64,000 bases of DNA from assembly GCA_965645245.1 (NCBI GenBank), contig OZ287073.1:2666001-2730000 (forward strand), given 5' to 3'. A program made the position numbers and the translations under genes. The notes beneath the pieces are model-generated. The model ran no database searches. It saw nothing but the letters and a program-made list of their open reading frames with translations, and had not been told where the DNA came from. Origin of the DNA: Massalongia carnosa. Taxonomy: Eukaryota. Of this stretch, positions 34,858 through 53,600 are shown piece after piece (position 1 is the stretch's first letter; each line of letters opens with the position of its first letter).

Positions 34858-35871
34858 ATGACGAACACCCGTTCCCAAAGCACCCCGATGGACGACATAG
34901 TCCCCGACTCCCAGGAGATTGTCGGATTGACGCAGGCCCAATCCAATCAAATCTTCGCCCTACAAAAGAAGAAAGCCGAGGCAGAAGCGAAGGCGGCCGA
35001 GGCTGAGGCTAGAATTGCCGAGTCCAAGGCATTGGTCGCCGAGAAGGAGGTGGAAAAAATGCAGCTAGAAATCGACTGCATGCGCCGAGAATCTGACGCC
35101 CGAATAGCGGCCGTCATTCCTGCTGGCAAGCCGAGTCGTGTCGTCGGCGATGACGACGAGGACCTAGGTGAGATCCCTCTCGAAGTAAGAAGTATAGCAC
35201 CCCGTTTCGCGGGCCTACCACAGGACGAGATCATCAAGATCTTTTCAAATAAATTCAAAGCCATCAACCTCTCCCGCCTCCGACACATGCACGGCATGCA
35301 ATACGAGTCATACAAGGATCAAGACCGCATCGGCATCGAAGACGGCGCCTTGAGGTTGAGAAAGGCATCCGGGACCTACAAAGATTTCGGAAAGACAGTT
35401 CATGACGTCTGGACCGAGAGCTTCATCAACTACACCTCGATCATGGTCAGTCTTTTCGGGAAATCGAGTCAACAGCTTCACGCCACCATGTCGGCATTCC
35501 ACGGAAAAATCCTCACGCTGGCCAAGGTGTACGAGTGGCAGGAAGCAGTCCTCCCCTTCGCCATCGAAACCCACACTCACATCATCGCGTCTCAGCCATC
35601 CGACGCATCCCAATGGAAAATGCCCGACGAATTCCAAGCTCGATTCTGCACCCCCCTCACAGTCCTACGCCGTCGCCGCTCACGATCCCCGCCGTCCCGA
35701 CGACCGACCCCGAGAGGAGACAGGGCCGATAGGGCCGAGAAGGCAGCGGGGGAAATCTGCGACAAGTACAACAGCGGCACCTGCACCTGGCCGTCGTGCT
35801 ACCGACAGCACAAATGCAAATCGTGCGGCGCGGCTGGGCATGGCCAGAAGACATGCCCAACGAAGAAATAG
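34858..35871 (+). CDS. YR-1 gag-like ORF1
   Basis: Coiled-coil N-terminus and a C-terminal CDKYNSGTC..C..H.C..C...H....C finger, shared with ORF1 of YR-2 and YR-3. Confidence 0.85.
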   Translation: MTNTRSQSTPMDDIVPDSQEIVGLTQAQSNQIFALQKKKAEAEAKAAEAEARIAESKALVAEKEVEKMQLEIDCMRRESDARIAAVIPAGKPSRVVGDDDEDLGEIPLEVRSIAPRFAGLPQDEIIKIFSNKFKAINLSRLRHMHGMQYESYKDQDRIGIEDGALRLRKASGTYKDFGKTVHDVWTESFINYTSIMVSLFGKSSQQLHATMSAFHGKILTLAKVYEWQEAVLPFAIETHTHIIASQPSDASQWKMPDEFQARFCTPLTVLRRRRSRSPPSRRPTPRGDRADRAEKAAGEICDKYNSGTCTWPSCYRQHKCKSCGAAGHGQKTCPTKK

Positions 35872-37619
35872 GGGGTTAGTGCAGGAGGCAGTAGAATAGC
35901 TTCAATAGCTGAATTCATGACGTCCCATCCCTGCTTACCTGCACCAATCAGACCAAATACAATCCCTTTGTTTCAACTCGTAGACGCATCTCGTCAGCGT
36001 TTGAAAGACAGCCCATCTCCCCTCGTACCGTCCGCATGGGCAACTCTACTTCAAGAGTATCCGGGCCCCCTCCGAGTCCATCTGCCCATGATCCTTCGTT
36101 TCGGAGTACAAATCGGATACGAAGGCCCCACAGACATCCTTCGGATCGAAAAAAATCTGACATCAGCGAATGAGGACCCGGAAACGATCGAGAATAAGCT
36201 CCAAGAGGACCTCAGGAAGGGCCGAGTCAGACGAATAGCCGCCCCGAGTCAGCCATTTGTGGCCTCCCCCCTCGGCTTGGTCCCGAAACATGACGGAGGA
36301 TGGCGACGCATTCATCATCTGTCTCATCCCAATCAAACATCAGTCAACGACAAAATTCCAGAAGAGGCATCCAAATTACAATACGCCAGACTCGACGACA
36401 TTATTCAATTGATTCTGTCAGAGGGCAAAGGTGCTGTCATAGTGAAAAGAGACGTCAAAGACGCCTTTCGAAACGTTCCCGTCGCACCTCATCATCAATG
36501 GCTTCTGGGTTTCGGATGAAATGACGAATTCTACACCGAGACATGCCCTTCGTCGGACTGTCGACGGCCCCGTTCATCTTCAATCTTTTTGCGGAAGGCT
36601 TTCATTGGATTTTGGAATCCTTTCTACAATGGAGATTACATCACTATCTAGACGACTTCGTTGCAATTTTCCCATCCGAGACATCGTCAGAACGATTGCA
36701 CCAAGAAACAAAAGCCTACAACATTCTCACCGACATTCTTGGCAACCCGAGAAACGACTCAAAAGACGCCGAGGGAACGACAGCGACAGTCTTCGGACTC
36801 GAGGTCGACACCATCAACAGTCTTATTCGTCTGCCAGCGGACAAGCTGGAAAAAGCGAGAATCATCACTACAAAGGCACTAAACGAGACGACAATCGGCC
36901 TCGGCGACATGCAGTCAATAGCGGGCTTCCTAAGCTTCTGCGCACAGGCAGTCAAATTGGGCCGAGTCTTCTTACGATTATTCTGGAATTTTATAGCCTC
37001 ATTTCCCTCGGGCAGTCATCGTCGGGTCAAAAGAAGAATTCCCACATGGGTCAGACAGGATCTCATCTGGTGGAACAAACTTCTAGTGGACTTCAACGGT
37101 ATTGTCTTCTTCGAGACGTCAACACGAGACACGATCAAGGTGCATACGGATGCATGCCTCACGGGTCTCGGAGGCTATTTTCAACAAGACAACGAGCTCG
37201 TGAATCAAAAAAACGCATGTAGGGCCCGAGTCCTAGTCCTCAATCAGGAAGGATCACCGAGCATAAACGTCCGAGAAGTCGAAGCTATCCTTCTAATCCT
37301 TCAGAAATGGGCGCCGACATGGCGACATCGACAGATCCTTGTCTTTACCGACAGCAACACAGCATACACAGGATTCACGAATCTAACCCTCAAGGGACCG
37401 GCCAACGCGCCTCTACGAGAAATACTGTCCATAGCTGCAAAGTGGGACATCGTACTACGTTGTCAATGGATCAGTGGCACTTCCAATGGACTAGCAGATG
37501 CCCTGTCACGTTTTGATGATGAAAGATTGGCTAACTTTTGCCCTCATTGGCAGAACCCATACAATTCGATGAACCTCCCTCCACCTACCTATCCTCCACA
37601 CCAGGGTCAGCCCTGGTAA
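35872..37619 (+). pseudogene. YR-1 RT-RNase H (stop at 36517-36519, frameshift near 36550)
   Basis: SPLGLVPK..GGWRRIHHLS, KRDVKDAFR, HYLDDF, HTDAC and LADALSR. Confidence 0.9.
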
Positions 37620-51983: not shown

Positions 51984-53600
51984 CTAACCGCCCCATTCTT
52001 ATCCATCGCGGAGTCCTTTCCATACACCTTGACGGACAATCTAACAAAGATCCCACCGGGCCCATTGAAGAAAGAAGGCTGGGAGAAACATTTGGCCAAT
52101 CACCCGGATCGCACTTACACACAAACAATTATCGATATCATCACCTACGGTGCCAAAGTTGGTTATACAGGACCACATCAACTCATTATTAGCGATAATC
52201 TTGCCTCTGCAAATGAGGCACCGGAAGTTCTTACCAATGACCTCGAAGAACAAATAGCTAGTAATCGGTTGGAGAAAGTCAACAACATTCCTTCTTGCTT
52301 TATATGTTCCCCATTAGGCCTTGTACCAAAGGCTAACGGTGGTTGGCGGCGAATCCATCATCTATCGTATCCGGAGAGTAGCTCAGTCAACGACCACATA
52401 CCGGAAGACTGGGGCTCCCTGGAATATACCAGCTTCGACGAAGCCATTAGGTTGATTGAGCAACGCGGGCCAGGGTGTATTCTTATTAAAAGAGACTTTG
52501 CGGACGCTTTTCGCCACATACCAGTAGCAAAAAGCGATTGGTGGTTACTAGGTTTCAAGTGGCAGGATTCCTTTTGGATGGATAAATACTTACCCTTTGG
52601 GCTGAGAACGTCGCCGTTCCTTTTTGATCTGTTCGCGAAGGGTATCAACTGGATATTGTACAACTGTGGTTGGAAAGACGCTATTCATTACTTGGATGAT
52701 TTTTTAATAATAGTCAGCACCGGACCAGATGCTGAAAAGTTTGATCAAGTTTTCCACAACATTTGTAAAGATCTTGGCAGGAAAATCAAGCTCGAAAAGA
52801 ACAGAACTGGAACGACTTGCGATTTCCTCGGCATTGAAATCGATACCGCGCTCATGGAAGCACGCTTGCCTTCCGAAAAGTTACTAAAAGCAAAGACCCT
52901 AGTATCGGCAGCTTTGAATAAAAAAGCCATACCCAGGAAGGAACTCGACTCTCTTCTAGGATTCTTATGCTTTGCAGCCAGAGTGGTAAAACCAGGAAGA
53001 GCCTTTCTACGCCGTCTTTTCAATGCTACGGCAAGCGTAACCTCTAAACTAATCCATCTTAACAAGGACATGAGGGCTGATCTTCTATGGTGGCATCATT
53101 TCCTACCTAAATGGAATGGCATACATCTGCTCAACCGTACTAGACATACTATGAGAATATGGACAGATGCGTCCGGCTCATATGGTATGGGCGGCTTTAT
53201 CCTCAGCGAGGATCAAAATTTGCATAATATACAAGCAGCCCGGCAGGCTTTTAGCACACGCTTTACTACGCGCCTTAGGGCAAAGCATATCAACGTCAAA
53301 GAAATGACAGCAATTCTTCAAGCTATGAAAAAGTGGCTACCTATATGCAAGGGTAGTCATTTAATCCTCTATTGTGATAGCTACGCTGTCACGAAAGGAG
53401 TGAATAAAACCTCTATACGAGGCCAAGCAATGCATGCCCTGCGGGCAATTACAATGCTAGCTGCATTACATGATATCCAGATAGAAGCGCGATGGATATC
53501 ATCCAAAGAAAATTATATTGCTGATCTCTTGTCTAGAGGACTTTTGAAGAAACTGGCTGACAAAATCCCTCAGTTTCAGGCTCTACCCTCAGCAATATAG
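51984..53600 (+). CDS. YR-3 RT-RNase H (in frame with gag, no ATG before the RT domain)
   Basis: Uninterrupted, with SPLGLVPK, DFADAFR, LPFGLRTSP, HYLDDF, WTDASG and IADLLSR. Confidence 0.93.
   Translation, partial: LTAPFLSIAESFPYTLTDNLTKIPPGPLKKEGWEKHLANHPDRTYTQTIIDIITYGAKVGYTGPHQLIISDNLASANEAPEVLTNDLEEQIASNRLEKVNNIPSCFICSPLGLVPKANGGWRRIHHLSYPESSSVNDHIPEDWGSLEYTSFDEAIRLIEQRGPGCILIKRDFADAFRHIPVAKSDWWLLGFKWQDSFWMDKYLPFGLRTSPFLFDLFAKGINWILYNCGWKDAIHYLDDFLIIVSTGPDAEKFDQVFHNICKDLGRKIKLEKNRTGTTCDFLGIEIDTALMEARLPSEKLLKAKTLVSAALNKKAIPRKELDSLLGFLCFAARVVKPGRAFLRRLFNATASVTSKLIHLNKDMRADLLWWHHFLPKWNGIHLLNRTRHTMRIWTDASGSYGMGGFILSEDQNLHNIQAARQAFSTRFTTRLRAKHINVKEMTAILQAMKKWLPICKGSHLILYCDSYAVTKGVNKTSIRGQAMHALRAITMLAALHDIQIEARWISSKENYIADLLSRGLLKKLADKIPQFQALPSAI

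Follow-up and report, generated by a model that had tools for sequence, protein, structure and literature searches.

The window, a 64,000-nucleotide stretch of the Massalongia carnosa genome (assembly GCA_965645245.1, contig OZ287073.1, positions 2,666,001 to 2,730,000 of the forward strand), carries between 34 and 56 kb three plus-strand retrotransposons, YR-1, YR-2 and YR-3, which share the gene order of a gag-like open reading frame (ORF), an ORF for reverse transcriptase and RNase H (RT-RH, here pol), and an ORF for a tyrosine recombinase (YR). A sequence-only reading of the window had proposed that the stop codon closing each gag ORF is a programmed readthrough site from which a Gag-RT-RH fusion protein would be made. 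Our analysis supports this proposal with three lines of evidence, namely the conservation of the stop and of the reading frame among homologues, the enrichment of particular nucleotide contexts at positions +4 to +9, and the coding character of the spacer that follows the stop. On these grounds we consider programmed readthrough likely, both for YR-3 and for the group of elements to which it belongs.

Each of the three gag ORFs reaches its stop in the same frame that carries on into pol, and the earlier reading had placed all three stops and the bases after them correctly (Table 1). As it had also stated, the pol frame is open past the stop in every case, for 215 (YR-1), 389 (YR-2) and 538 (YR-3) codons. 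The first ATG beyond the stop occurs at codons 16, 110 and 199, respectively, which bears out the claim that YR-2 and YR-3 have none ahead of the RT domain (none for 109 and 198 codons): the ATG of YR-2 coincides with the SPLGLVPK motif, where the RT core begins, and that of YR-3 lies within the Pfam RVT_1 match. A short peptide just past the stop is common to the three elements (IASIAEF, LSFISEGFPY and LSIAESFPY), which are nevertheless separate families, being 24-37% identical in gag and 41-56% identical at the N-terminus of pol.

The gag ORFs are called gag-like from their position and their C-terminal CxxC...H...C knuckle; none of the three has a Pfam match. The pol of YR-3 combines RVT_1 (E 3.6e-13) and RT_RNaseH (E 1.4e-7) in one ORF, and RVT_1 is also detected in YR-2. 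The YR-3 recombinase ORF matches Phage_integrase with an E value of 4.6e-4, under Pfam's cut-off, and its HSFRRG and ...AYKLY motifs were identified by reading. Across the seven ORFs scanned with Pfam there was no rve or protease match, nor any match to a methyltransferase domain after the RNase H of YR-3, where the recombinase ORF (from 53561) begins before the pol ORF has ended (at 53600). Split direct repeats enclose YR-3 in the order A1 - internal - B1 A2 B2, with 99-100% identity, and no inverted terminal repeats were found in it. Because YR-3 has split direct repeats and is without methyltransferase, protease and DDE integrase, as in the elements described in PMC3266345 and PMC9210276, we assign it and its group, by these sequence features, to the Ngaro-type tyrosine-recombinase retrotransposons of the order DIRS. 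YR-3 also looks recently active, judging from its three intact ORFs, its 99-100% identical repeats and its near-identity in contigs of four public runs, where one base differs (52780) and the TGA is intact in the three of the four runs that cover it; the type of these runs, DNA or RNA, is not recorded, so that their contigs carry no information on expression. YR-1 and YR-2 are decayed, with pol and YR frameshifted; the pol of YR-1 jumps to another frame, which marks it as a decayed copy. Split direct repeats were not found around either of these two decayed elements.

If the stop served as a recoding signal, homologues should retain it, whereas a lesion would be replaced by a sense codon in other copies. 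We surveyed metagenome contigs, taking the best 80 of 447 confirmed relatives as ranked by likeness to YR-3 pol and scoring their junctions with a gag hidden Markov model built from 34 ORFs ending in a zinc knuckle, combined with a tblastn search for pol. In 38 of the 80 loci gag and pol share one frame with exactly one stop between them; among the others, nine have the same frame with two or more stops, 15 have pol in another frame and 18 are without a scorable junction, although two of the latter (L064 and L026) are also of the single-stop type when judged by eye. A fused gag-pol ORF without a stop was found in none of the 80 loci. Homologues thus retain a stop, be it TGA, TAG or TAA, and its identity can switch within a family (TAA in L047, TAG in L062, L069 and L070). 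A scan of viral contigs returned 12 pattern matches and no relatives. In a pol tree (FastTree, SH-like support only) the loci fall into four clades, with YR-1 in clade A and YR-2 and YR-3 in clade B. Of the 45 classifiable metagenome loci in clades A, B and D, 37 have a single in-frame stop; the others are mostly members of single-stop families in visible decay (L002, L018, L030, L033 and L075) or, as in L042, carry a frameshift deeper in the spacer. The frame relation, whose constancy the earlier reading had made a touchstone, is accordingly kept in three of the four clades, even though anything between 0 and 193 codons separates the stop from the first pol segment of strong conservation; it is not kept in clade C and in a few basal loci.

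The nucleotides around the conserved stop are far from random. Clustering of the junctions at 80% nucleotide identity gave 33 families, to which the window contributes three. The junction stops are TGA in 24 families, TAG in seven and TAA in two; control stops at the pol ends of the same elements (ORF of at least 450 aa, n = 23) are TAA in nine, TAG in eight and TGA in six. At the +4 position the junction families have C in 28, G in three, A in two and T in none, as against A in nine, C in six, T in five and G in three of the pol-terminal stops. TGA-CTN accounts for 18 of the 24 TGA families (CTA 10, CTC 7, CTT 1) and for 6.4% of background TGA triplets, and TAG-CAA for four of the seven TAG families with a background of 2.4%. 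All 20 leucine codons next to a junction stop are CTN, and 11 of these are CTA, which otherwise makes up 14% of leucine codons. The excess of C at +4 (uncorrected binomial P = 1.8e-11) and that of CTA (P = 2.4e-5) are to be read with the caveat that the families are related, so that both values overstate independence; despite this relatedness, contexts vary between families yet stay in class, and even the stop codon is exchanged, L047 having TAA where its close relatives have TAG. AA immediately precedes the stop in 13 of the 33 families, compared with 7% of codons. Examples among the relatives are TAG-CAA-TTA (L068), TAG-CAA-TTC (L062, L069 and L070) and, in many loci, TGA-CTA; TAA-CAA (L047) and TGA-CAA (L077) are present too, and stop-G contexts occur in three of the 33 families. 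By sequence, these contexts are the classical classes of Beier and Grimm: type II (TGA-CTN), type I (TAG-CAA-TYN) and type III (TAG/TGA-G). The accessible text of PMC3159437 describes type I as UAG-CAA-UYA, type II as UGA-CGG/CUA and type III as UAG-G with a structure, together with an 8-nt spacer and extended stem-loops, and that of PMC10085805 reports that UGA-CU and an upstream AA favour readthrough in fungi. The earlier description of UGA-CUA as a leaky context, and of UAG-G with an 8-nt spacer as the arrangement of murine leukaemia virus (MuLV), matches types II and III in the former source. Altogether, the survey of stop, frame and +4 to +6 context that had been suggested shows stop and frame to be conserved in clades A, B and D and leaky contexts to be enriched, a pattern which, as far as sequence comparison can tell, goes beyond chance.

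We next considered whether the spacer after the stop is translated. Frame 0 is free of stops by the definition of the class, but when the same 2922 spacer codons are read in the two alternative frames, 62 and 133 stops appear, so that spacers as long as these would not be expected to stay open by chance. In pairs that have diverged enough (L007/L011/L014; L041/L047/L062/L069), the ratio of nonsynonymous to synonymous substitution rates (dN/dS) of the spacer is 0.25-0.39. No ATG precedes the conserved pol region in 21 of 42 loci, and no ATG is conserved. The junctions hence display a feature of readthrough sites, a single in-frame stop whose downstream part lacks a conserved start. Since the spacer is open, has a dN/dS of 0.25-0.39 and is without an ATG in half of the loci, translation would appear to enter pol from gag, through the stop.

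Proteins in databases offer a further view of the junction. A search with the YR-3 read-through product, with X at the stop, returned 109 pol-type proteins of 507-770 aa, whose alignment with gag in no case exceeded the 27 residues next to the stop. In an exhaustive search of 1.84 billion representatives with the 200 aa on either side of the YR-3 stop, we considered the best 150 of 6752 matches and examined 19 of them, in which the match extended up to or over the stop position or was split into two segments; five were compared with the loci. Among the matches listed, five chains join real gag and pol. Three of them run from the gag zinc knuckle into pol with a W exactly at the stop position (P0243, which is YR-3-like, and P0329 and P0293, which are YR-1-like), and two are continuous, P0240 with an A at the stop position and no knuckle, and P0282, which is clade-C-like. 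The W in P0243, P0329 and P0293 is probably a TGA read as Trp by the gene caller, which fits better than random sense mutations.

Regarding RNA structure, the stem that had been noted in YR-1, of 12 bp and 8 nt past the TAG, is recovered in the minimum-free-energy fold (35879/80-35891 with 35931-35944; one bulge, one G-U pair); the 97-nt fold has z = -2.21, with 4 of 200 shuffles folding as well, and the 3' arm falls in the codons of the conserved CLPAP motif. For the YR-1 sub-clade we also compared, with shuffled controls, the duplex potential of the 30 nt starting 10 nt past the stop with the 39 nt ahead of the codons of the conserved PNT motif, leaving out L049, in which the two segments overlap. 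Pairing is in excess in YR-1 (z -3.46; 4/2000 shuffles as low), L057 (TGA-GGA; z -3.9, 3/2000), L064 (TAA-CTG; z -3.3, 6/2000) and L077 (TGA-CAA; z -2.1, 61/2000), and there is no excess in L068 (z +0.98), which has the full TAG-CAA-TTA. As the stems of YR-1, L057, L064 and L077 are alike in place but not column by column, they are suggestive only, and a role of the YR-1 stem as a signal is plausible on the basis of these predictions. Fold z values of -1.8 or lower were obtained for YR-1, L057, L064, L071 and L077. L064, the sole clade A family with TAA-CTG, also has a perfect 9-bp hairpin 7 nt past the stop (L064:1273-1310; fold z -3.5, 1/200 shuffles). The pairing of CTATCCG with CGGATAG that had been pointed out in YR-2 fared differently: the two arms exist, but the fold predicted for the site (z = +0.15) does not contain their 7-bp pairing, YR-3 has none like it, and in 243 of 5000 shuffles the first 12 nt likewise allow 7 bp of perfect pairing, so that we rejected it as a signal. 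A search of Rfam over positions 34000-56000 with E values up to 1 gave two chance-level matches only, none at a junction.

Besides the relatedness of the families, several observations weigh against the readthrough interpretation. Many database pol proteins begin with M near the junction (e.g., MPSSLLFVSEGFPY), and some relatives may have their own pol start codon there. YR-1 and YR-2 are dead copies, in which the mechanism would therefore be ancestral at best. A general downstream structure at all junctions was tried and rejected, the mean z of the 33 folds being about -0.2, and the consensus fold of the TAG-GGA family (six sequences) has compensatory changes in 0 of 21 pairs; the proposed check by folding and covariation thus yielded the YR-1 stem and analogous stems in three relatives, and neither a class-wide structure nor covarying pairs in that family. 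The loci surveyed are only the 80 closest to YR-3 pol. L016/L036, where another stop or a shift of frame follows the gag stop at a distance of 18-19 nt, are an unexplained exception. Of the 24 loci of clade C, most have several stops ahead of pol or a pol in the +1 frame, which begins after 28-226 nt interrupted by stops in every frame. The pol of L009, a basal relative of YR-1, lies in an open -1 frame and overlaps the end of gag over a long stretch (1400-1950), a layout as would be expected for -1 frameshifting. Relatives therefore use or tolerate other arrangements, and with clade C and a few basal loci having pol in another frame, the single-stop strategy is not universal in the group.

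Several of these points would fit an ordinary gag terminator, with pol being made by internal initiation, by termination-reinitiation or from a separate (spliced or subgenomic) mRNA. The ATG 16 codons past the YR-1 stop, the occurrence of some spacer ATG in 21 of 42 loci, the several database pol proteins that start with M beside the conserved SEGFPY motif and the ability of clade C relatives to express pol from another frame all agree with independent expression. Yet such expression needs neither a shared frame nor a frame that is open from the stop, and both are present in the 37 of 45 loci of clades A, B and D; moreover, the spacer is coding-like from the stop onward, the ATG is not conserved and is missing over the long leading segments of YR-2 and YR-3, and the context of the junction stops is leaky, opposite to that of the pol-terminal stops. 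We thus regard independent expression of pol as improbable.

Still less probable, in our view, is an intron across the stop that fuses gag to pol in a minor mRNA, even though clade C gives some reason to think of it. Thirteen of 17 clade C loci have a gag terminus that reads ...CGT TAG N, with the stop inside a conserved GTTAGN that resembles a 5' splice site (e.g., L056:1789-1809, L063:1726-1746, L065:3736-3756 and 10 further loci), and a splice from this GT may join gag to pol there; every clade C locus with this GT offers several candidate acceptors in frame, however, which leaves an intron search powerless. YR-2 likewise has GT directly ahead of its TGA, but its GTTGAC is without the G of the splice consensus at intron position 5, and YR-3 has no GT near the stop. 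The spacer beside the stop, furthermore, would be intronic, yet it is open and under purifying selection, and no contig of the four runs, which are not known to be RNA, has a joint across the stop.

Least credible is that the stops are lesions, by repeat-induced point mutation (RIP) or random mutation, in a single gag-pol ORF, or codons that the host reads as sense: the decay of YR-1 and YR-2, the W of three database proteins and the continuity of P0240 and P0282 over the junction would suit it, but YR-3 is intact with exactly one stop and with repeats 99-100% identical, the 33 junction families, drawn from many contigs, keep the stop at one place with none fused, lesions would not favour TGA-CTN or TAG-CAA, and other ORFs end in all three stops and hold none internally. 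An alternative genetic code was rejected, because all three stops serve both as terminators and as junction stops.

Under programmed readthrough, genomic RNA would be translated from the gag ATG and most ribosomes would end at the gag stop, yielding Gag. A minority would decode the stop with a near-cognate tRNA and stay in frame, yielding a Gag-RT-RNase H fusion, and a low Pol:Gag ratio would thereby be set by readthrough, as in gammaretroviruses and some LTR (long terminal repeat) retrotransposons. At UGA, near-cognate decoding would be expected to place Trp, Cys or Arg. The signal in YR-2 and YR-3 would consist of the stop and the next bases (UGA-CUA), and that in YR-1 of UAG-G, probably aided by the stem-loop that starts 8 nt downstream. 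That readthrough happens, how efficient it would be and that the stem would act on it we infer from the conserved anatomy, stop, frame, contexts and coding signature described above.

The mechanism itself is not new, being known for MuLV, Tj1 and Tca2. YR-1 resembles the type III arrangement of MuLV and other gammaretroviruses, in which, according to the accessible parts of PMC3159437 and PMC5009743, gag and pol lie in one frame with a single UAG-G and a structure 8 nt downstream and a low Pol:Gag ratio is achieved via the fusion; YR-1 has UAG-G and a predicted stem of 12-13 bp at the same distance. MuLV differs in having a protease, a DDE integrase and a compact pseudoknot, whereas the prediction for YR-1 is an extended stem with a loop of ~39 nt, and no protease is present. 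YR-2 and YR-3, with TGA-CTA, and more generally the 18 of 24 TGA families with TGA-CTN, resemble fungal LTR elements (Tj1, Tcry1 and Tosmo1-3 of fission yeasts; Tca2 of Candida albicans), for which the available portion of PMC10085805 reports an in-frame TGA-CT(A/G) with AA ahead of the stop; in the Ty3/Gypsy elements of fission yeasts GAA-TGA-CT is conserved, and the stop of Tj1 is reported to be essential for transposition. These elements are Ty3/Gypsy or Ty1/Copia, with LTRs, protease and integrase, unlike the Ngaro copies here with their tyrosine recombinase and split direct repeats. The same hexanucleotide classes that occur among the Ngaro relatives are also found in RNA viruses of plants and animals, where tobamoviruses have type I (UAG-CAA-UUA) and alphaviruses and tobraviruses type II (UGA-CGG/CUA, with an extended 3' stem-loop), and the extended stems with spacers of 7-12 nt in the accessible text of PMC3159437 resemble those predicted in YR-1, L057, L064 and L077; the viral sites, however, extend a replicase or a coat protein and are not gag-pol junctions of a DNA-integrated retroelement.

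Described Ngaro elements are alike in having gag-like, RT-RNase H and YR ORFs, no methyltransferase and split direct repeats, and the accessible parts of these descriptions (PMC3783388, PMC3266345, PMC9210276 and PMC8547959) depict ORFs that overlap or do not, with YR in frame or frameshifted. An in-frame gag stop or readthrough is not mentioned in the accessible text of these four papers or of PMC12440569. Readthrough in Ngaro was likewise not found in the searchable literature, while the primary Ngaro descriptions, which lie outside that search, may already note it.

Table 1. Features of the YR elements in the window (positions counted from the first letter of the window).
Feature	Position	Strand	Remarks
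YR-1 gag ORF	34858..35868	+	337 aa counted from first ATG; C-terminal end ...CKSCGAAGHGQKTCPTKK
YR-1 gag stop TAG and GGGGTT	35869..35877	+	UAG-G, type III-like context; AAA codon precedes stop
YR-1 predicted stem-loop	35879..35944	+	5' arm 35879-35891, 3' arm 35931-35944, loop ~39 nt, 8-nt spacer
YR-1 pol (RT-RH)	35872..37553	+	gag frame open 35872-36519; other frame 36531-37553
YR-1 tyrosine recombinase remnant	37571..38557	+	
YR-2 gag ORF	42131..43243	+	371 aa
YR-2 gag stop TGA and CTATCC	43244..43252	+	UGA-CUA, type II context
YR-2 pol	43247..45510	+	gag frame open 43247-44416 (RVT_1); later pieces frameshifted
YR-2 tyrosine recombinase remnant	45528..46522	+	split over two frames
YR-3 repeat A1	50399..50698	+	99% identical to A2 at 54795-55094
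YR-3 gag ORF	50829..51980	+	384 aa
YR-3 gag stop TGA and CTAACC	51981..51989	+	UGA-CUA
YR-3 RT-RNase H ORF	51984..53600	+	538 codons, intact; terminates in TAG
YR-3 tyrosine recombinase ORF	53561..54616	+	-1 frame relative to pol; 40-nt overlap
YR-3 3' repeats	54653..55343	+	B1 54653-54800, A2 54795-55094, B2 55196-55343 (split direct repeats)
Fourth copy, same group	61847..64000	-	RT-RH and YR 60-61% identical to YR-3; gag-pol junction past window end

Some further features of these elements and of their surroundings may be added. The first ATG of the YR-3 recombinase ORF comes only at about codon 104, and by its sequence the recombinase, too, would require a device for fusion or recoding. 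The frame past the gag stop is open for 749-1018 codons in many relatives, which suggests that RT-RH and YR lie in one ORF there. One contig of the X4 run omits 107 nt with GT..AG ends within the YR-3 gag (51279-51387), at a depth of ~1000 compared with ~100000 elsewhere; the gap could be an intron or reflect a deleted copy. Short tandem duplications stand directly upstream of the gag starts of YR-1 (34712-34850, 74-75-nt units) and YR-2 (41950-42016, 20-nt units).

The rest of the window is made up of nested Copia, LINE (long interspersed nuclear element), Gypsy and Tc1 elements. A neighbouring Gypsy pol has named relatives in Aspergillus (69% identity), Exophiala (64%), Cordyceps (63%) and Aureobasidium (62%), which would point to a filamentous ascomycete as the probable host. 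At 18689-22807, a Gypsy pol ORF 1089 codons long closes with a stop (21956-21958), past which the same frame goes on for 282 codons with a Tf2-type SH3 domain; this stop is probably a lesion within the integrase and not a signal. Another Gypsy element (28023-33774, minus strand) has a 585-codon upstream ORF that overlaps a 1338-codon pol ORF by 23 nt in a different frame, the usual frameshift layout, in contrast with the adjacent Ngaro elements.

In gammaretroviruses and some LTR retrotransposons, control of the Gag:Pol ratio by readthrough of an in-frame gag stop is textbook knowledge, and the same logic appears here in a protease-less order of tyrosine-recombinase elements, one group of which appears to use all three classical eukaryotic signal types. 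For annotation, this advises against calling pol as a separate gene from a doubtful start codon, and for research on recoding, the junctions provide ~30 independent natural contexts from fungus-like hosts. They also prompt one to ask what use an element that has no protease would make of a Gag-RT-RH fusion. The frame relation varies among distant Ngaro relatives, as it does among retroviruses, and it is tempting to speculate, although we hold this to be rather doubtful, that protease-less Ngaro-type elements may depend on a Gag-Pol fusion and that their lineages swap the device by which it is made: mostly a leaky stop that moves among UGA-CUN, UAG-CAA-UYN and stop-G with an extended stem, in clade C splicing at GT-TAG-N, and in L009 perhaps a -1 frame. 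If this were true, the Ngaro group would be a natural series for how recoding signals and splicing replace each other.

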